From Archaeoglobus fulgidus DSM 4304 (GTDB lineage: Archaea > Halobacteriota > Archaeoglobi > Archaeoglobales > Archaeoglobaceae), in contig NC_000917.1 of assembly GCF_000008665.1 (NCBI RefSeq), positions 1,470,001 through 1,502,000 of the forward strand: a stretch of 32,000 bases of DNA, read 5' to 3'. The notes beneath the pieces were generated by a model. It made no database searches. It had not been told where the DNA came from and saw only the letters and a program-made list of their open reading frames with translations. This document shows positions 8,317 to 25,845 of the stretch, one piece after another. A program made the position numbers and the translations under genes. Position 1 is the stretch's first letter; every line of letters begins with the position of its first letter.

Positions 8317-9089
8317 TGAAGCTGGCAGCGATTCAGTGCAGGATTGGAGATTTTGGAAGTGCTGAAAGGCTGGCGATGGCTGCGGTTGAAGGTGGGGCTG
8401 AGCTCCTGCTCTTCCCGGAGTACTTCTCGTATTCAAGACTCGCTCCAGAGGTACTGGATGAAACTCTCTCTTTTTTAAAGCGAATAAGCTCTGAGCATGG
8501 TGTTGTTGTCTCGGGAAACGCTGTGGTTGACGAAAACGGATACAGGAACAGGTCATTCCTTTTTGACAGCGGAGAGCTTATCGGAGTTCAGGACAAGATT
8601 CATCCAACGAGAGTTGAGAGGGAGCTTGGAATTCAGTGCGGGACAAAGCTTCAGGTTTTTGAGGTCAGGGGGGCCATGATAAGCACTTTAGTTTGTGCCG
8701 ATATTCTGTATCCAGAAATATGCAGGGTTGCCGCCCTTAAGGGGGCTGAAATCGTCCTTAATCCCGTTGTTTCCTTCAGAAAATCCGAGCTGCCGGGTGA
8801 GGAGTACAGGTACTGCCTTTACTTCACCCGCTCCTTCGACAACGCCTACGCAATAGTCAAGGCTGGGGGGGTTGGCACAACCTTCACTGGCAGTGAAGCG
8901 GTGGGAAGAAGCCTCATCGCCAGCTTCGACGGCATTCTGGCGAGGTTCAGGGATGAGAATGCTGAGGAAGTTGTGATTGCTGATGTTGATTTGAAAAGGA
9001 TAAGGGAGTACAAGACGATAAACTACTCCCTCGTTGACAGAAATGTCAGGGCATACGAAGAGTTGCTGAACAAAAATTTTAAATCATAA
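8316..9089 (+). CDS. Carbon-nitrogen hydrolase (nitrilase superfamily) protein
   Basis: Glu-Lys-Cys triad context is present (LLLFPEYF, VQDKIHP, LVCADILYPE). SD GAGGAGG lies at 8304-8310. The start ATG 8316 abuts the stop of the upstream gene (TGATG). Confidence 0.8.
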   Translation: MKLAAIQCRIGDFGSAERLAMAAVEGGAELLLFPEYFSYSRLAPEVLDETLSFLKRISSEHGVVVSGNAVVDENGYRNRSFLFDSGELIGVQDKIHPTRVERELGIQCGTKLQVFEVRGAMISTLVCADILYPEICRVAALKGAEIVLNPVVSFRKSELPGEEYRYCLYFTRSFDNAYAIVKAGGVGTTFTGSEAVGRSLIASFDGILARFRDENAEEVVIADVDLKRIREYKTINYSLVDRNVRAYEELLNKNFKS

Positions 9090-9105
9090 TCATCTTTCAA
9101 GTTTC

Positions 9106-10017
9106 ATGGACAGCAGTCTTGCTAACATCAACCAAATTGATGTTCCGTCCAAGTATCTTCGACTCCTCCGCCCCGTTGCGTGGCTCTGCTTCCTGCTTCC
9201 TTACGCCGTGGGATTTGGATTCGGGATAACTCCAAACGCAAGCCTTCAGCACGCTGTTCTTGGCCTGCTCTCCTTTGCCTTCTGGATGGCCTTCAGCTTC
9301 ACGATAAATGCTTTATACGACAGAGATGTTGACAGGCTGCACGACGGCAGGGTGAAGGATTTGAACCTCTCCATGCAGCCGCTCGTTACCGGAGAGATCT
9401 CTGTGAGGGAGGCGTGGCTTTACTGCATTGCTTTCCTCGCCCTATCCCTCGCAACCGCCGCAGCAATCAACGAGAAGTTCTTCCTCGCAATGCTCGGGGC
9501 AAACATAATTGGCTATGTCTATTCTGCCCCTCCACGGTTCAAAGCTTGGCCTGTAATGGATGTTATCTGCAACGCCCTCGCAGCCGTTCTCGCCTTCTAC
9601 GCTGGGCTGAGCATTGGCGGGGCTGAGGTGCCGATTGCAATTTACCCTGCAGCCTTCTTCCTCGCGGCAACCTTCTACATCCCCACCGCCGTTTCGGACT
9701 ACGAGTTTGACAAAAAGGCGGGCTTGAAAAACACCCCGGTTTTCTTCGGCCCCGAGAGGGCTCTGAAGTCCCTGTACCCGCTTTCAGCCATAACCGTCAT
9801 TCTATGGGCCTACGTTTTTTTGATGGCTGAAAGAATTGAGATTAAAGTAATATCACCCCTCATAATCGCCTACACTCTGATTTACACCTTCATTATCAAC
9901 TCAAGGTGGGATGGCGAGAAGCTGAACGTTTCGCCAAACCTAATTCTGACACCTTTCGGCATAATATCTGCCCTATTCATCGCATACGGTTTTGCGGTAA
10001 TTTCGGTGTTGGGCTAA
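9106..10017 (+). CDS. UbiA-family integral membrane prenyltransferase
   Basis: 303-aa polytopic hydrophobic protein with two Asp-rich motifs (NALYDRDVD and DYEFDKKAG). The substrate cannot be assigned from sequence alone. Confidence 0.85.
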   Translation: MDSSLANINQIDVPSKYLRLLRPVAWLCFLLPYAVGFGFGITPNASLQHAVLGLLSFAFWMAFSFTINALYDRDVDRLHDGRVKDLNLSMQPLVTGEISVREAWLYCIAFLALSLATAAAINEKFFLAMLGANIIGYVYSAPPRFKAWPVMDVICNALAAVLAFYAGLSIGGAEVPIAIYPAAFFLAATFYIPTAVSDYEFDKKAGLKNTPVFFGPERALKSLYPLSAITVILWAYVFLMAERIEIKVISPLIIAYTLIYTFIINSRWDGEKLNVSPNLILTPFGIISALFIAYGFAVISVLG

Positions 10018-11733: not shown

Positions 11734-12092
11734 TGATGCGCTTTTCCAAGTTTCTGAAAGTTGAGGCAGACATCGTCGTGGCAAGGCACGCTCTGGTGAT
11801 GGACGAGACGAAGAGCAAAGCTGAGCCCGTCATATTCCTCCATCCTGAATTCGCCAAGAGGAGCGGTGTGAAGGAGGGGGATGTGGTTGAGGTTGAGGCT
11901 AACGGCAGAACTGTGAAGCTTAGAGCAAAGCTATCAGAAAACGCTCCCGAGAATGGTGGGATAATGCCCAACGGCATCTTCGCGAGCTACCTGACAGGCT
12001 TTGATGGTTTCAAGAGGTTCAAGGCCAATATTGAGGTGGCTGAGGGGGAGCCGACATCGTTTGAGGAGATTCTCGAAAAAATAAAAGGTTAA
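11733..12092 (+). CDS. fwdD: Formylmethanofuran dehydrogenase subunit D-like (molybdopterin dinucleotide-binding beta-barrel domain)
   Basis: About 119 aa with the typical FwdD/molydop_binding pattern (VIFLHPEFAKRSGVKEGDVVEVEANGRTVKLRAKLSENAPENGGIMP). SD AAGGAGGG lies at 11719-11726. The start overlaps the fwdB stop. Confidence 0.8.
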   Translation: MMRFSKFLKVEADIVVARHALVMDETKSKAEPVIFLHPEFAKRSGVKEGDVVEVEANGRTVKLRAKLSENAPENGGIMPNGIFASYLTGFDGFKRFKANIEVAEGEPTSFEEILEKIKG

Positions 12093-14821
12093 GAAACAAC
12101 AATATTTTTCACAACCACTTTTACAACCTTGTAGCTATAGTCAATCACGGCCATTTTCACCGTGTACTCCCCCGGTGAGCCGAAGGACATTGTTGTTGTT
12201 GCCCCCATCCTCATTCGGCCGTTGCTGAACACCCAGATGATCTGTTTATAGTTTATTCCTTCAACGTAGGCCTTGAAAGTAATTCTTTGACCTGCCTTTG
12301 GCTCTTCTGGCGTGTAGGTGAAGTCGGCAACAACCGCTTTCTCTTCGTAGGTGTAGCTTCCAACATTGCCCGCAAGGTCTTCCATGGTTATCTTAATGGT
12401 TGAATCTGCGATGCTGCACTTCCAGACGTCTCCTTCTCTCTGCATCTCAATACCGTTGGCCCTGGCCCACTTCAACTCTTCCGACGGTTTTACGATGAGC
12501 GTGTCGCTATTCTTTTCTACACTGAGAACTTCAGGTGGCTTTGTATCGAGAGTAAAGGTTAGCCTTTCACTTGCCGCATTCAAAGCTTCAACCCACCACG
12601 TGTGGTCTCCGTCAGCAATGTTTGCGTTTACAGTAATTTCCCCTGAACCATAGCCCTCATACACGGCGTTGCCGTCAACGTAGAGCGTAAAGGCAGCTTC
12701 AACGGGCAGCACAAATTTGAATTCTGCCTTGTTTGTTACGCCACTCGGCTCAAGCAGCTCTATCTGAATTTCAGGTAGGTTTATTTCAATGCTGTTAGCA
12801 TTTCCGGCCTTGTCAATAGCGGTGAGCTTTGCATGGGTTGATTTGACCACAACATCCCAGCTAATTCCGTCTCCACTTACACTGCAGTCACCTTCATCTA
12901 CTCTCAGCTCAACTTCTTCCGAGGTTCTGAGAACGACCTTGTAGCCATTATCGCTCCACCCCTCCTCAACTACAGTTATTTCAGGCTTGGTGATATCAAC
13001 TGTAATCAGAACGGTTTCTTCAGCCTTGTTTCCGTCATGGTCGATGGCGACAACTTTGACCTCATGTTTTCCTTCCGTGAGGGTGAGCTCCGGGGCTGTT
13101 TCAACACCATCCAGCAGGTAAATCACCTCATCCACCGCAGTTTCCGCATCATAGGCGCTGACAGCTAAGCTTAGCTCTGTGTAGTTTATGTACTCTGGAA
13201 GGGCCGGAAGCTCAATGACGGGTGTGTTGATGTCCCTGAGTGTTATATTGACGGTCATGTCGCCATCCGCTATGAAGGTGTGCTCAGCATAGCCCTCGGC
13301 AGAAACTGTTACAACAGCACCCTTTTCAACCATCAACGTGAAATAACCGTCATCATCCGTCTTTGTCATTTCTGAGCCCGCTTCAACAACCGCATCAACA
13401 GGCTTTCCGAGGGAGTTGAGAACGTAGCCCTCAACGGTAACCATAGGCTCATAAACTCTCAGGATTGTGGTTGTTGAGTTCTTTAACCCCTTGTCGTCGC
13501 ATGCGGTGATTTTGACCTGATACTCCCCACTCTTCTCGTAAACGTGGTTGATTCCCGGAGCTACCCACGAAGTTCCATCGCCGAACTCCCACTTAACCCA
13601 GACAACTTTACCATCCGGGTCGTAGGATAGGGATTTGAAGAATACCGGCTCTCCTGCCACCGGCTTTTCGGGAGTAATTTCGAAGAGAACCACTGGTGGC
13701 TGATTCTTTGAAACCTGCATGTTCATAGCTGCTGCAAAGGCCCTGTAAGCGTCAACGATACCGCTGCCCGACTTAACGTCCTTCCCAGCAATCTCAATGT
13801 CCGTTGCTGATTCTTCAATTGCCCTCTTAACGTCTTCTGGCGTAAAATCGGTATTTGCCTGAAGCAGTAGCGCAGCTATTCCCGAAACATGCGGTGTTGC
13901 CATTGACGTGCCTGAAAGGGAAGCGTAGCCCCCATCCTTCCACGTTGAAACAACCGCCACACCCGGAGCGACGACGTCGGGCTTAATGTACTCTGGATTG
14001 TAGCCAACAGGCCCGCGGCTGCTGAAGTAAGCAACTTTGCCGGCTTTGTCCACAGCTCCAACAGTTATTGCGTTCTCTGCCGAGCCGGGAGAGGCTATGC
14101 TCCTTTCCCCAAGCTCTCCCGAGTTCCCTGCAGCGATTACCGCCACAACTCCCCTTCTCACAATGTCGTTCACAGCCTCGCTCAGTATGTCGTGTCCGTT
14201 GGACGGGTAAACCACGTAGGCTGTAACGTCTGCCTCAACCTTTCTGTCTCCCGAATTTGTGAGCCTGATGGTCCAGTTGCCCTTTTCGAGGACAGTCGAT
14301 GGTGAATACTGGCAGTCGAAGTAAGAACTTGTGACGGTGCACTGAGGCTTTACTGCAGTCCCTGACGGTGAGATGAGCTGGAATTCGAAGCTTTCGGGAA
14401 TTTCTTTGGACAACGTGTGCATTACGATGAACCAGCCATTTGCAGTCCAGCCAGCGTTGCCGGTCTCAACGTCATCGTAAAAGCCGATTTCGGGTATTGC
14501 TATGTTGTCTATCCAGACATAGTTGTCACCGTACGACTCAAAAATTAGCCTTCCCGCAGTGCTGGAGCTTAACTGTATGCTCTTCCAGCTGTTGTAGGTT
14601 GCAGAAGACAGAGAGAGCAGCTCCTTGGTTTCCCCGTTCGCCTCAAGCTTAACAACAAAGCTCCCTCTCACATACCCTATAATGTCGAACTTAAGCGTGA
14701 AGGGCCTGTCAACGTCCATTTCAAGGGTCCTTGTTCCACCGTAAGGCGGCGCAGCCCAGACGTAGTTCACCGTGTCGGGATTAACCCTCAGCTTAATGTA
14801 ACTCGGCACGAAGTTGTCCAT
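12089..14821 (-). CDS. S8 protease, C-terminal fragment (inserted domains, Asn/Ser catalytic motifs, PKD, CarboxypepD_reg-like and Ig-like repeats)
   Basis: AAGNSG and GTSMATPHVSG are present, plus a PKD motif (WEFGDGT), a GYVLNSLGKPV...TDDDGYF domain and a second PKD-like domain at the C-terminus. The frame stays open upstream of ATG 14821, up to about 14958. Confidence 0.8.
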   Translation of the reverse strand: MDNFVPSYIKLRVNPDTVNYVWAAPPYGGTRTLEMDVDRPFTLKFDIIGYVRGSFVVKLEANGETKELLSLSSATYNSWKSIQLSSSTAGRLIFESYGDNYVWIDNIAIPEIGFYDDVETGNAGWTANGWFIVMHTLSKEIPESFEFQLISPSGTAVKPQCTVTSSYFDCQYSPSTVLEKGNWTIRLTNSGDRKVEADVTAYVVYPSNGHDILSEAVNDIVRRGVVAVIAAGNSGELGERSIASPGSAENAITVGAVDKAGKVAYFSSRGPVGYNPEYIKPDVVAPGVAVVSTWKDGGYASLSGTSMATPHVSGIAALLLQANTDFTPEDVKRAIEESATDIEIAGKDVKSGSGIVDAYRAFAAAMNMQVSKNQPPVVLFEITPEKPVAGEPVFFKSLSYDPDGKVVWVKWEFGDGTSWVAPGINHVYEKSGEYQVKITACDDKGLKNSTTTILRVYEPMVTVEGYVLNSLGKPVDAVVEAGSEMTKTDDDGYFTLMVEKGAVVTVSAEGYAEHTFIADGDMTVNITLRDINTPVIELPALPEYINYTELSLAVSAYDAETAVDEVIYLLDGVETAPELTLTEGKHEVKVVAIDHDGNKAEETVLITVDITKPEITVVEEGWSDNGYKVVLRTSEEVELRVDEGDCSVSGDGISWDVVVKSTHAKLTAIDKAGNANSIEINLPEIQIELLEPSGVTNKAEFKFVLPVEAAFTLYVDGNAVYEGYGSGEITVNANIADGDHTWWVEALNAASERLTFTLDTKPPEVLSVEKNSDTLIVKPSEELKWARANGIEMQREGDVWKCSIADSTIKITMEDLAGNVGSYTYEEKAVVADFTYTPEEPKAGQRITFKAYVEGINYKQIIWVFSNGRMRMGATTTMSFGSPGEYTVKMAVIDYSYKVVKVVVKNIVVS

Positions 14822-15600
14822 GTCATCGTAAACTTCTCCGAGGCTCGAATAAACCGGAAGATTAATTTCGTAGCTCTCTCCTGAGTTGAGAACTTTTCCG
14901 TAGCTCCCCCCAATCCGGGCAATGCTCCAAGACTCATGCTTATCACGTCCGCACCATTTTCATAGGCCCACTGTATCCCCATGAGAACGGTTGAGAGCTT
15001 CCCGCTCCCCCTGCTGTCGAGAACCTTTGCTGCCATGATTTCCGCTTCCGGAGCGACTCCTGTTATCTCTCCAGCGATTGTTCCTGCAACGTGAGTTCCG
15101 TGTCCGTTATCGTCGTAGGGCTCAGTTTGCCCGTTGACGAAGTCAGCAAAGGCTACGATTCTATCAGCAAAATCCGGGTGCCTCGCAACGCCGGTGTCTA
15201 TGACGGCAACCTTAACCCCGCTACCCTTGTAGCCCATTTTCCATACTCCCGAGACGTTTATGAAGTCAAGGTTCCACACGTCTGCTTCACTGACAGACGT
15301 TGCTGTGGTGGAGAAGAGATCAGGCATGGATAGCATCTGTATTTCGTCAACGGCCTTTACGTCGACGTCGGGATAGACTCCTTCAACATAGGGATTCTCC
15401 GACAGCTTTTTGATTTCATCTTCACTCAAATCAGCCGCAATGACGCTGAACAGCTCTATTTTCTTTGCTCCGTGCATTGTGGCAGCAACGTCATCCAGAT
15501 ATCCGTCCGCAACCTTTATAATCACTGGAACTCCTGCTGCCGTTTGGAGACTCACTATTATCACCAAGCTCATTATTATTATTGTCCTTATACTCATCAT
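14788..15600 (-). CDS. S8 protease, N-terminal fragment (signal peptide, propeptide, Asp and His catalytic motifs)
   Basis: MMSIRTIIIMSLVIIVSLQTAAG is the signal, and DTGV, HGTHVAG and SMSLG motifs follow. The last 37 codons after ...LGG (ATEKF...) look out of frame. Confidence 0.8.
   Translation of the reverse strand: MMSIRTIIIMSLVIIVSLQTAAGVPVIIKVADGYLDDVAATMHGAKKIELFSVIAADLSEDEIKKLSENPYVEGVYPDVDVKAVDEIQMLSMPDLFSTTATSVSEADVWNLDFINVSGVWKMGYKGSGVKVAVIDTGVARHPDFADRIVAFADFVNGQTEPYDDNGHGTHVAGTIAGEITGVAPEAEIMAAKVLDSRGSGKLSTVLMGIQWAYENGADVISMSLGALPGLGGATEKFSTQERATKLIFRFIRASEKFTMTWTTSCRVTLS
14906..14911 (-). other. C6 (plus) / G6 (minus) homopolymer at the protease frameshift; the minus strand reads G_GGG_GGA in the upstream frame
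   Basis: The minus strand reads ccc gga ttG GGG GGA gct. A -1 shift, or one extra G, gives ...LGGSYGKVLNSGESYEINLP..., which is continuous with the 910-aa ORF. Confidence 0.8.
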
Positions 15601-15621
15601 GAAAATCGGTCAAACCTTCCG

Positions 15622-15629
15622 TAAATAAA
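15622..15629 (-). promoter_or_regulatory. TATA-like box (TTTATTTA on the minus strand) 21 nt upstream of the protease ATG
   Basis: It lies in the 151-bp AT-rich spacer 15601-15751 and has the same leaderless-type spacing as 3763-3770 and 24847-24856. Confidence 0.3.
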
Positions 15630-15751
15630 TTTTTCTCACAAAATAGTAAATACCGAAAAAATTAGAATAACAAATTTAAGAATTAGTTAAAAAATATTAA
15701 CAACATTAAAAAAATTTATCCAAACTCAAGATAAAATTTCGAAATTGCTAC

Positions 15752-20829: not shown

Positions 20830-21582
20830 TCACTCGAAGGGGTTGCTGTCGTCGTTGAGCTGCGTAACGGCAAACTTCAGGGTTGCTCCCCAGCTATCAG
20901 ACTGGGCCATGTTGTCAGTATCGGTAGGTGTCCACTCCCAGTAGATGCCGAAGCAGTATGTCTGGCATGCTTCCATGTATCCTCCCGGTAGATACTGGCT
21001 GAGGTTGAAGTTCGCATCGGAGATATCTTTCAGGTATCCGCTCCACAGCAGCTGTTCGCTGCCATCTCCGTTTCCATCAACAAACGTATCCCTACAGCCG
21101 AAAGGACAACCATCGTAGAAGTCATACTTGTTGTCGCAGTCGTCATCCCTCCAGATCATCACGTGGATGTACTCATCAAGCTCTCCATACCAAGCTCCAT
21201 CTGTGGTATCTCCTGCTTCCTGCTCTGGCTCCGTAAGGCCATTGTCATCGTCTTCCGTAACATCAACGGCAAACCACAGATAGCCTGGGTTGTTGTAGAG
21301 GTGCAGGCTAACTGTCATCTCTCCGCTATCTCCCGGCTTCACATCGTCGAGCTGCCAGAAGTAGTCCACAGATGCATTAAGGTCTTTCTCGCTAAAGTTG
21401 TGGTGGTAAACCTGACCATCCCACTTCCAGTATGTGCTGTTCAGGTCCACTTTCAGGTCGAGGCTGCCAGCCGTGAAGGTTCCCGGCGCCATTTCGGTGT
21501 CGCTGAAGTAGGCAAGGGTTCCCGCTCCAAGCCCAATTCCAATCAGCCCCACTACAAGGAGGCTGTACCAAACCTTTTTCAC
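20830..21582 (-). CDS. TasA/camelysin-like secreted protein with an Asp/Cys-rich insertion; first gene of the operon
   Basis: [20 protein letters not shown] and VKPGDSGE are present, with a degenerate C-terminal motif ([14 protein letters not shown]). SD GAGGTGA lies 6 nt upstream of GTG 21582; the ORF track starts at TTG 21588. Confidence 0.7.
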
Positions 21583-21616: not shown

Positions 21617-21649
21617 TTTAATATGCTTATTGAAATATAATTATGAATC
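21617..21649 (-). promoter_or_regulatory. Promoter module of the TasA-like operon: upstream element CATAATTATA.TTCAA plus TATA-like CATATTAAA
   Basis: The minus strand reads GATTCATAATTATATTTCAATAAGCATATTAAA, ending 34 nt upstream of GTG 21582. It matches 21948-21980 at 27 of 33 positions. Confidence 0.55.
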
Positions 21650-21715
21650 AAAAATAAGTATTGCAAATTCGGATTGAAAATCGGGAAAGAAGCTGTGTAT
21701 TCATTTTAGGTAACA

Positions 21716-21928
21716 CTAATACACATCAAGCCTAACCAACCTCCGCCCACTTTCGCTGAGCTTCAGCTTCAGGTTTGCTCTTTCGACGAAATCCATCTCC
21801 ATCAGAAACTCCAGCACTTTTCTCAGCATCGCCCTCTCAACCCTCAGTTTTTCGGCCAATTCCCTTTCGGTCATCTCCTCCTCATTCAGAATGAGCAGAA
21901 TCTCATCGATAAGTTCTGGAACTTTCAT
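21716..21928 (-). CDS. Small winged-helix DNA-binding protein (putative transcriptional regulator)
   Basis: A 70-aa form starts MKVPELIDEILLILNEEEMTERELAEKLRVERAMLRKVLEFLMEMDFVER, which is an HTH-like pattern. The 89-aa form in the ORF track would place the conserved promoter module inside the coding region. Confidence 0.6.
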   Translation of the reverse strand: MKVPELIDEILLILNEEEMTERELAEKLRVERAMLRKVLEFLMEMDFVERANLKLKLSESGRRLVRLDVY

Positions 21929-21947
21929 AATACTAATTTTCCTAAGA

Positions 21948-21980
21948 TTTAATATGAATTTTGAAGTATAATTATGGATT
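21948..21980 (-). promoter_or_regulatory. Promoter module of the small wHTH gene, paralogous to the operon promoter
   Basis: The minus strand reads AATCCATAATTATACTTCAAAATTCATATTAAA, ending 19 nt upstream of ATG 21928. The TATA-like element is about 24 nt from the ATG, giving leaderless geometry. Confidence 0.55.
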
Positions 21981-22049
21981 TGCATTAAGTAACTGTCTTA
22001 CGAAATCATTTTTCGTATTTGGGCTTATCGCAAAGACCAAAAAATATTG

Positions 22050-22340: not shown

Positions 22341-22470
22341 CCTACGAGCCTTTGCAGATGTGGAATGTTATGTTTATGTTTTTAATGATATTTATAGATT
22401 TTGTTGAATTGTAACTACCATAATGATGAGAGCCTTAAATTAATTGTATAAAAATTATTTTTATAAGCCC

Positions 22471-24876: not shown

Positions 24877-25845
24877 ATGGAGACTCTTATTTTGACTCAG
24901 GAGGAAGTAGAATCCCTGATATCGATGGACGAGGCGATGAATGCTGTTGAGGAGGCGTTCAGACTTTACGCTCTTGGTAAAGCTCAAATGCCGCCAAAGG
25001 TGTATCTTGAGTTCGAAAAAGGCGATTTAAGGGCTATGCCGGCGCATTTAATGGGGTACGCAGGATTGAAGTGGGTGAACTCCCATCCCGGAAATCCGGA
25101 TAAAGGCCTGCCAACAGTCATGGCGTTGATGATACTGAACAGCCCTGAGACGGGGTTTCCCTTGGCTGTGATGGACGCAACCTACACGACCTCTCTGAGA
25201 ACCGGTGCTGCTGGAGGAATAGCGGCGAAGTATCTGGCAAGGAAGAACAGCAGCGTTTTTGGATTTATCGGCTGCGGAACTCAGGCGTATTTCCAGCTCG
25301 AAGCTCTGAGGAGAGTGTTTGATATAGGAGAAGTCAAGGCCTACGATGTTAGGGAAAAGGCAGCGAAAAAGTTCGTTAGCTATTGCGAAGATAGGGGAAT
25401 CTCAGCTTCCGTGCAGCCTGCTGAGGAGGCGAGCAGATGCGATGTCCTTGTCACCACAACTCCGTCACGAAAACCAGTTGTTAAGGCTGAGTGGGTTGAG
25501 GAGGGGACGCACATAAACGCAATCGGTGCGGACGGGCCTGGAAAGCAGGAACTGGATGTAGAAATACTTAAAAAGGCTAAAATTGTTGTCGATGACCTTG
25601 AACAGGCCAAGCACGGCGGGGAGATTAATGTGGCGGTTTCAAAAGGCGTCATAGGTGTTGAAGATGTTCACGCAACCATCGGGGAGGTTATAGCCGGTCT
25701 GAAGGATGGAAGGGAGAGCGATGAGGAGATTACAATCTTCGACTCCACAGGCTTGGCGATTCAGGACGTGGCTGTTGCAAAAGTCGTTTATGAGAACGCC
25801 CTTAGCAAGAACGTGGGGAGTAAAATAAAGTTTTTCAGGATATGA
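24877..25845 (+). CDS. ala: Ornithine cyclodeaminase/mu-crystallin family NAD-dependent dehydrogenase; matches the Archaeoglobus-type alanine dehydrogenase
   Basis: 322 aa with an OCD/mu-crystallin pattern (RTGAAGGIAAKYLA, GFIGCGTQA Rossmann motif). The sequence METLILTQEEVESLISMDEAMNAVEEAF... matches my memory of the structurally characterised A. fulgidus AlaDH. Confidence 0.8.
   Translation: METLILTQEEVESLISMDEAMNAVEEAFRLYALGKAQMPPKVYLEFEKGDLRAMPAHLMGYAGLKWVNSHPGNPDKGLPTVMALMILNSPETGFPLAVMDATYTTSLRTGAAGGIAAKYLARKNSSVFGFIGCGTQAYFQLEALRRVFDIGEVKAYDVREKAAKKFVSYCEDRGISASVQPAEEASRCDVLVTTTPSRKPVVKAEWVEEGTHINAIGADGPGKQELDVEILKKAKIVVDDLEQAKHGGEINVAVSKGVIGVEDVHATIGEVIAGLKDGRESDEEITIFDSTGLAIQDVAVAKVVYENALSKNVGSKIKFFRI

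Follow-up and report, generated by a model that had tools for sequence, protein, structure and literature searches.

Introduction

Phr of Pyrococcus furiosus and HSR1 (AF1298) of Archaeoglobus fulgidus are autoregulated winged-helix heat-shock factors, whose extended operator is found both at the promoter of the factor itself and at those of a few targets. Here we describe a promoter module of 33–44 bp that is present twice within 32,000 nucleotides of the A. fulgidus DSM 4304 chromosome (NC_000917.1, positions 1,470,001 to 1,502,000; this whole stretch is called the window in the following). One copy precedes the small winged helix-turn-helix (wHTH) gene AF1662, the other one precedes the adjacent TasA-like fibre operon AF1661-AF1654, and both may be under common control of a locally encoded winged-helix protein. 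As in the case of Phr and HSR1, the promoter of a small wHTH gene shares an extended element with a target operon, the regulon appears to be very small, and the element is located near the B recognition element (BRE) and the TATA box. The operators of Phr and HSR1 are clear palindromes (e.g. CTAAC-N5-GTTAG), which overlap or follow the TATA box or the transcription start site (TSS) and confer repression. In contrast, the symmetry of the module is limited to an AT core of 8–10 bp, the element lies upstream of the BRE, its binding by a regulator is putative and the proteins are non-homologous as far as tested. The kind of feature, in which one cis element is common to a regulator gene and its target, is well known, and this instance is new.

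The biofilm matrix operon tapA-sipW-tasA of Bacillus subtilis is controlled by the adjacent SinR/SinI/SlrR genes. The archaeal locus resembles it in comprising a TasA-type operon with a dedicated SipW-type peptidase, in the small DNA-binding regulators encoded next to it and in the recurrence of the operator at the operon and at the regulator gene. It differs from Bacillus in its transcription machinery (TBP/TFB versus sigma-A), in regulator folds and operators, which are unrelated, and in its operon, which holds four TasA paralogues and two peptidases. In Sulfolobus the Lrs14-type regulator AbfR1 controls biofilm formation and motility, and for A. fulgidus a stress-induced biofilm was reportedly described by LaPaglia and Hartzell in 1997, as the title of their article has it. 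TasA-like fibres are a matrix component common to bacteria and archaea, and TasA homologues have been noted in Archaeoglobales, where their function is putative (PMC9245690).

A second archaeal system for comparison is EarA of Methanococcus maripaludis and Pyrococcus furiosus. According to excerpts of three reports, this wHTH protein activates the archaellum operon through short motifs directly upstream of the BRE and thereby offsets a weak core promoter (PMC5512572, PMC10665913, PMC10117864). The distal element of the module likewise ends at the BRE, and a silent default state of the fibre operon fits this type of control. EarA sites are repeated 6-bp motifs of the TACATA type, however, and a shared module at the earA promoter is not reported in these excerpts. 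The candidate regulators at the present locus are a member of the Sso10a/HTH_45 family (AF1663) and an unclassified minimal wHTH protein of 70 aa (AF1662). Sso10a proteins are mainly described, in an excerpt of PMC4941522, as architectural chromatin proteins. AF1663 is linked to the fibre operon by its location, which suggests a specific regulator. A literature search for TSS maps of A. fulgidus or for the AF1661-AF1663 locus retrieved nothing relevant.

Results

An extended promoter module is repeated upstream of AF1662 and the fibre operon

On the minus strand the 33-nt core of the module reads GATTCATAATTATATTTCAATAAGCATATTAAA upstream of the operon and AATCCATAATTATACTTCAAAATTCATATTAAA upstream of AF1662 (Table 1). 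The initial annotation, which was made from the letters of the sequence, had reported 27/33 identity between the two upstream sequences. This was reproduced (6 mismatches), and the direct repeat extends without gaps to 44 nt (34/44, 77% identity) at a spacing of 331 nt. For comparison, both intergenic regions, which measure 133 and 121 nt (26–28% GC), were subjected to 2000 dinucleotide-preserving shuffles. The best ungapped match over 33 nt comprised 27 identical positions versus 19.7 ± 1.1 (maximum 24) in the shuffled sequences, and over 44 nt 34 positions were found versus 24.0 ± 1.3 (maximum 29; n = 2000 in both cases). The repeat exceeds chance.

The 16-mer CATAATTATAYTTCAA, put forward by the initial annotation, occurs in exact form solely at the two module sites of the 32-kb window, with an expected count of 0.05 if up to two mismatches are allowed. 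A weight matrix built from seven orthologous and paralogous module copies assigned 52–54 bits to the two copies, and no other site in the window attained 15 bits. A third full or distal module site was thus not found by this matrix in the 32-kb window. The only other match to the distal matrix, a weak one (16.8 bits; AATCATAATCATCTTTCAA, 9082-9100, plus strand), falls between TATA box and start codon (ATG) of the gene at 9106 and was judged to be due to chance. In a genome collection, in which A. fulgidus itself is not included, the full-module pattern was restricted to this locus in two Archaeoglobaceae metagenome-assembled genomes (MAGs), apart from two chance hits in AT-rich bacteria; a scan of metagenomes with the pattern gave another two chance hits, and none of the four has a fibre or regulator gene nearby. 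A scan of viral contigs with the distal 16-mer also gave chance matches among the matches listed. Judged by the related MAGs and the 32-kb window, the module appears to be neither a dispersed repeat or mobile-element end nor a common promoter.

The module is conserved at both promoters in related Archaeoglobaceae

By means of the first TasA-like protein of the operon we recovered three more distant Archaeoglobaceae lineages, in which this protein is 80%, 79% and 73% identical to that of the window, and these were combined with the window in a four-lineage comparison upstream of the operon (relatives are designated L011, L016 and L023 below). Among ten A. fulgidus-type loci neither module carries any substitution (0), and neighbouring intergenic positions vary. 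Over the four lineages the 44-nt module upstream of the operon shows 89% pairwise identity, while its flanks are down to 47% upstream of the module and 41% in the 21-nt spacer to the Shine-Dalgarno sequence (SD). The SD and the operon start codon are again conserved (93% identity, fixed spacing), and the distance from the module to the SD is free of indels in all four lineages despite the diverged spacer.

The repeat itself was also retained. In L011 the regulator copy (45 nt) is 78% identical to the operon copy of the same locus at a spacing of 332, and in L016 the corresponding values are 56 nt, 77% and 318. The window regulator copy matches its orthologues at 31/33 (L011) and 24/33 positions (L016), and the same number of matches, 31/33, is seen between the L016 operon copy and the window regulator copy. 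Because paralogous copies resemble each other as much as orthologous ones, the module pair predates these lineages and is maintained by selection. Both copies are under purifying selection in related Archaeoglobaceae. One extended cis element is shared by the promoters of AF1662 and of the operon and kept in relatives, which is the layout of an autoregulated regulon.

Predicted core promoters and transcript leaders

The proximal part of the module contains the TATA-like sequence CATATTAA, which is directly preceded by a purine/A-rich, BRE-like hexamer. This hexamer reads CAAAAT in the regulator copy of the window and in the operon copies of L016 and L023, and AATAAG in the operon copies of the window and L011. 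CAAAAT is also located immediately 5′ of the TATA box in the promoters of the ribonucleotide reductase (RNR) gene and of the HTH_45 gene AF1663. The box itself differs from the TTTWAWWW-type boxes of other local promoters (consensus TATA: TTTATATA), and no other promoter in the window uses CATATTAA.

Six other genes of the window lack an SD; they start at 2428 (minus strand; 1664-2428), 9106 (plus), 10067 (plus), 24877 (plus; alanine dehydrogenase), 24729 (minus; RNR) and 15600 (minus; subtilisin). Their best TATA-like 8-mer starts at −30 to −24 and ends 20–22 nt before the ATG, so that leaderless transcripts seem to be frequent in this part of the A. fulgidus chromosome. In the regulator copy the 8-mer CATATTAA likewise stops 20 nt short of the AF1662 ATG, and the 19–22 nt between module and ATG contain no SD-like motif that is conserved in three lineages. 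Since the layout of CATATTAA matches that of the SD-less genes and a shared SD is missing, a leaderless AF1662 mRNA, as proposed initially, is the best reading.

The distances previously given for CATATTAAA were verified as well: in the regulator copy it is separated by 19 nt from the ATG (21928), and in the operon copy it ends 21 nt before the SD that belongs to the GTG start at 21582. Applying the spacing of the regulator copy to the operon copy places the operon TSS at the 5′ edge of the SD (Table 1). A short operon leader carrying the SD, which the initial annotation had postulated, agrees with the lack of indels between module and SD in four lineages. Its length would be about 13–16 nt, though, and not 15–20 nt. 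Furthermore, the initial annotation had preferred a start of AF1662 at 21928 over the longer 89-aa version. As in-frame stop codons close the extension in orthologues (TAA in L011, TAG in L016), the 70-aa start is right and the 89-aa annotation wrong. We infer the TATA/BRE assignment and the start sites at both promoters from these sequence comparisons. Overall, the structural interpretation of the initial annotation withstood all comparisons of sequences to which it was subjected.

Two contigs of the L011 lineage (L014:1 and L015:1) have their first nucleotide exactly 17 nt before the start codon of TasA1 (TTTCGAGGTGA...), near the predicted TSS. Such clustering of contig ends is not seen in A. 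fulgidus contigs and the ends may stem from RNA or from low-coverage DNA, and they were not used as evidence for a TSS.

The distal element and a related site upstream of AF1663

The distal half of the module, ATTCATAATTATAYTTCAA, has no comparable counterpart at other promoters of the window according to the distal matrix, and is the locus-specific part of the module and the likely regulator site. It includes CATAATTAT and TTCAA. Its CATAATTATR core corresponds to 9/10 of a perfect palindrome, and an extension of the dyad, TTGA..TCAA, is present in the A. fulgidus operon copy only. In each module the motif WWTYCATAWT occurs twice at a distance of 20 bp, distally as CATAATTA and proximally as CATATTAA. 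The pair could serve for binding at two sites on the same helix face, or each motif could be an alternative TATA box.

The core YCATMATTAT was found exactly three times in the 32 kb, each time on the gene strand and upstream of one of three consecutive promoters, namely those of AF1663, AF1662 and the operon. Upstream of AF1663 it forms part of a conserved block (CTCATCATTATGGTAGTTACAAT), which is also conserved in L011, where it is present in two copies, and degenerate in L016. A tandem duplication of 32–34 nt upstream of the HTH_45 gene of L011 (L011:3123-3188, an Archaeoglobus sp. MAG) has created the second TCATAATTAT core. Outside the core the AF1663 promoter is unlike the module: it has the TATA-like box TATAAATA, invariant in three lineages, and an SD-containing leader of about 35 nt. 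The shared core may link the three consecutive promoters.

Two candidate regulators are encoded at the locus

The AF1662 protein matches Pfam TrmB with 27.8 bits and weakly ArsR, MarR and HTH_45; matches to Sta1/Lrs14 are below the family cut-offs. Word-based and exhaustive searches detected homologues in close Archaeoglobaceae alone, and no relatives were detected in metagenome contigs by a protein search with a wHTH alignment. A single-sequence AlphaFold model was poor (pLDDT 66). The possibility that AF1662 is a truncated HTH_45 paralogue was considered and dismissed as marginal (17% identity, E = 0.022; Pfam HTH_45 E = 3.8e-4, below the cut-off).

AF1663 belongs to the Sso10a/HTH_45 family, as it scores 82.4 bits with PF14947 (cut-off 25.5) and 81.6 bits with the NCBIfam model NF053610 Sso10a_fam (cut-off 60) and matches Sso10a-2 (PDB 4hw0) with E = 1.9e-10. 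Its conservation of 52% is above that of AF1662 (35%). Of five distant archaeal loci with TasA-like genes, two have an adjoining HTH_45 gene, which hints at a recurrent association of HTH_45 proteins with fibre genes. Because of this proximity to TasA-like genes in distant archaea and the core motif upstream of its own gene, AF1663 is at least as good a candidate for the binding protein as AF1662. The two HTH_45 (Sso10a-type) genes of the distant MAGs (L149:3071-3790 and L150:3166-3417) are located just upstream of the TasA-like genes, and the HTH_45 domain of L149 is fused to a response-regulator receiver domain.

Organisation of the locus

Coordinates of the features are compiled in Table 1. 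The tags AF1661-AF1664 were assigned by gene order; the sat/apr genes to the right of the locus bear the published tags AF1667-AF1670, and the alanine dehydrogenase gene (24877-25845) gives a full-length match to PDB 1OMO (705 bits). The operon contains four TasA/camelysin-like genes with SipW-type signal peptides, an S26 peptidase, a 144-aa SipW-signal protein, a second S26 peptidase and a DUF5305 protein. Pfam recognises four PF12389 proteins and the two S26 peptidases, and the NCBIfam models TIGR04088 (cognate_SipW) and TIGR02228 (sigpep_I_arch) exceed their cut-offs. With subunits carrying SipW signals and a dedicated S26 peptidase, AF1661-AF1654 is a TasA/SipW fibre operon. Its synteny is retained in L011 and L016.

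T-tracts follow the stop codons of both AF1663 and AF1662, and at the AF1662 stop a hairpin-capable repeat is present in addition. The T-rich sequence TTTCCCRATTTTCAAT after AF1662 is common to the window and L011. Hairpin and T-tracts probably constitute a terminator, which would separate the transcription units of the regulator and the operon, and because of these elements AF1663, AF1662 and the operon are probably three separately promoted units. A search against Rfam gave no match, and the output of a scan for bacterial sigma-70 promoters and terminators was disregarded as not applicable to an archaeon.

Table 1 Features of the AF1664-AF1654 region (positions in the window)
Feature	Position	Strand	Remarks
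AF1664	24729-22471	minus	ribonucleotide reductase (RNR)
YCATMATTAT	22420-22429	minus	upstream of AF1663
Conserved block CTCATCATTATGGTAGTTACAAT	22408-22430	minus	upstream of HTH_45 promoter; holds third YCATMATTAT
TATA-like TATAAATA	22389-22396	minus	HTH_45 promoter; after CAAAATC; best TATA-like match, −65 to −58 from ATG
AF1663	22331-22050	minus	93-aa HTH_45/Sso10a-family winged-helix gene; own promoter and SD
Module copy 2	21948-21991 (33-nt core 21948-21980)	minus	upstream of AF1662
YCATMATTAT	21968-21977	minus	upstream of AF1662
Distal element copy 2, ATCCATAATTATACTTCAA	21961-21979	minus	30.4 bits (distal matrix); centre about 43 nt upstream of ATG
Predicted BRE-like CAAAAT, T and TATA-like CATATTAA	21949-21962	minus	AF1662 promoter; same geometry as six SD-less genes
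AF1662	21928-21716	minus	70-aa minimal wHTH gene; 89 aa in type-strain annotation
Inverted repeat, hairpin-capable, then T-tracts	21676-21725	minus	after AF1662 stop codon; predicted terminator
Module copy 1	21617-21660 (33-nt core 21617-21649)	minus	upstream of TasA-like operon
YCATMATTAT	21637-21646	minus	upstream of operon
Distal element copy 1, ATTCATAATTATATTTCAA	21630-21648	minus	33.9 bits (distal matrix); centre about 45 nt upstream of predicted TSS; putative regulator site
Predicted BRE-like AATAAG and TATA-like CATATTAA	21618-21631	minus	operon promoter; by alignment with copy 2 and analogy to window promoters
Predicted TSS, SD and start codon	TSS about 21597-21594; SD GAGGTGA 21595-21589; GTG 21582-21580	minus	first TasA-like gene; TSS inferred
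Fibre operon AF1661-AF1654	21582-15752	minus	TasA/camelysin-like genes, signal peptidases, DUF5305

Downstream of the operon, a subtilisin-like protease (12089-15600, minus strand) is encoded by two overlapping open reading frames (ORFs), which are annotated as AF1653 and AF1652. The ORF 15600-14788 (270 aa) contains the Asp and His motifs and the ORF 14821-12089 (910 aa) the Asn and Ser motifs; the split could be due to a frameshift, to pseudogene formation or to a sequencing error. Both halves were detected on published arrays at 0.2–1.6 times the mean. A separate promoter of the leaderless type (GAGAAAAA and TTTATTTA, located 21 nt upstream of the ATG codon at 15600) is present in 15601-15680 on the minus strand, which fits expression independent of the silent fibre operon upstream. 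At one of the distant TasA-like loci a 703-aa S26 peptidase (L154:5166-7277) is fused to an AF_1625-named domain (PF27237). From the name of this domain, A. fulgidus may possess a second related locus outside the window.

Discussion

We favour, with somewhat better than even confidence, the explanation that the two sequences of 33–44 bp represent one archaeal promoter module in two paralogous copies, under common control by a local winged-helix protein. The copies would drive two adjacent, separate transcription units, AF1662 and AF1661-AF1654. Each would consist of a core promoter, with BRE-like CAAAAT or AATAAG and the unusual TATA-like CATATTAA, and of the 19-bp upstream element ATTCATAATTATAYTTCAA, centred about 43–45 nt before the predicted start. 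A leaderless mRNA is predicted for AF1662, with its 5′ end at the ATG (21928) or within 1–3 nt of it, and the operon mRNA is predicted to start at about 21595 with a leader of about 13 nt made up of the SD. Most likely the distal element would be bound by AF1663 or AF1662, so that regulator and fibre genes are switched together, and YCATMATTAT upstream of AF1663 would draw the three consecutive promoters into one small circuit.

Several observations speak against parts of this explanation. AF1662 is just 35% identical in L016 and its recognition helix is poorly conserved, while the operon element is nearly invariant, which disfavours AF1662 as the binding protein. HTH_45 genes are absent from three of the five distant TasA-like loci (L152, L154 and L155). 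The regulator copy of L016 shows two changes in the distal core (CTTAATAAT), the operon copy of L016 being intact, and further copies of the module elsewhere in the A. fulgidus genome are possible. The initial annotation had described the distal element as containing a palindrome: its AT core of 8–10 bp is indeed symmetric, but the symmetry is confined to this core and the flanks are asymmetric in most lineages, which makes it a weak argument for a dimer operator. Finally, the distal element itself holds a good TATA-like sequence, TAATTATA, so that the TATA assignment could be reversed.

Activation by recruitment of the transcription factors appears slightly preferable to repression, in view of the site upstream of the BRE, the non-consensus TATA box and the near-silence of the distal operon genes in planktonic cells. 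In five planktonic culture conditions AF1654-AF1657 were expressed at 0–0.2 times the array mean (PMC3949148 Table S3; the rows for AF1658-AF1675 are not in the copy of the table), and the subtilisin genes downstream of the operon were expressed independently (PMC3949148 Table S3). As stated in an excerpt of PMC5512572, the sites of archaeal activators typically lie just 5′ of the BRE in promoters whose BRE/TATA is weak, and archaeal repressors occupy the TATA/BRE or the start. In the module the most specific conserved part is located upstream of the BRE, at a position typical for activators in that excerpt (PMC5512572), and this argues against a repressor, a possibility that we consider unlikely while giving it real weight. 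A repressing wHTH protein would bind both CATAWT halves, which are 20 bp or two helical turns apart, cover TATA box and BRE and block TBP/TFB, so that the operon and the regulator gene would be off until a signal releases the repressor. The silence of the distal operon genes in the five culture conditions would suit this model too, as would the sub-threshold similarity of AF1662 to Lrs14/Sta1. Lrs14 is known to repress its own promoter by TATA/BRE occlusion. Moreover, CATATTAAA is unusually invariant for a plain TATA box (six of seven copies). The internal repeat of AATTCATAAT and AATTCATATT, which are 20 bp apart, shows best in L016, in L023 and in the regulator copies, but it is weak in the operon copies of A. 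fulgidus and L011, where CATA.T.A alone remains.

The two WWTYCATAWT motifs also allow the module to be read as a reversed or tandem promoter, in which ATAATTATA of the distal half serves as the TATA box or as an additional one. The transcription starts would then be shifted upstream by about 20 nt, to the vicinity of 21613 and 21944, and CATATTAAA, in this case an operator or initiator-proximal element, would be found at about −16 to −4. TAATTATA indeed equals the proximal element in its TATA-consensus score and both halves of the module are equally conserved upstream of the operon. Nevertheless we regard this arrangement as distinctly improbable. The sequences 5′ of the distal element (GATTC, AATCC, AATTTG) are not A-rich, unlike CAAAAT of the RNR, HTH_45 and regulator promoters, and the regulator would receive a leader of 15–18 nt that has no SD in any lineage. 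In the L016 regulator copy it is the distal core that is degraded and the proximal element that is improved to TATAATTA, and the fixed spacing from the proximal element to ATG or SD corresponds to the local leaderless norm. Very improbable in our view is an origin without any dedicated regulator, either as relic of a local duplication, by which the small gene came to lie behind a copied operon promoter, or as generic A. fulgidus promoter consensus. The copies are direct repeats flanking exactly one small, lineage-restricted gene, as expected after a duplication-insertion, and the BRE/TATA half has the layout of other local promoters. However, the flanks are down to 41–47% identity, while both copies stay at 77–94% across lineages. 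As the copies stayed similar while their flanks diverged, selection on both of them is required. In addition, the distal element or CATATTAA is found at no other promoter of the window, and the full module is absent elsewhere in related genomes.

For A. fulgidus, the start of AF1662 is corrected from 89 to 70 aa, and the module offers a precise, short and conserved target, made up of a pair of small proteins and two or three fragments with promoters, on the way to the switch of the fibre operon. A more far-reaching idea, to which we attach low probability, is that the three promoters share a CATAATTATG-like operator and form a feed-forward, positive-feedback on/off switch for the production of fibres and biofilm matrix. 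If this was true, the CATAATTATG cascade would be an archaeal counterpart of the Bacillus SinR/SlrR switch in a hyperthermophile, and the Sso10a/HTH_45 family would gain a specific regulatory role beyond its architectural one.

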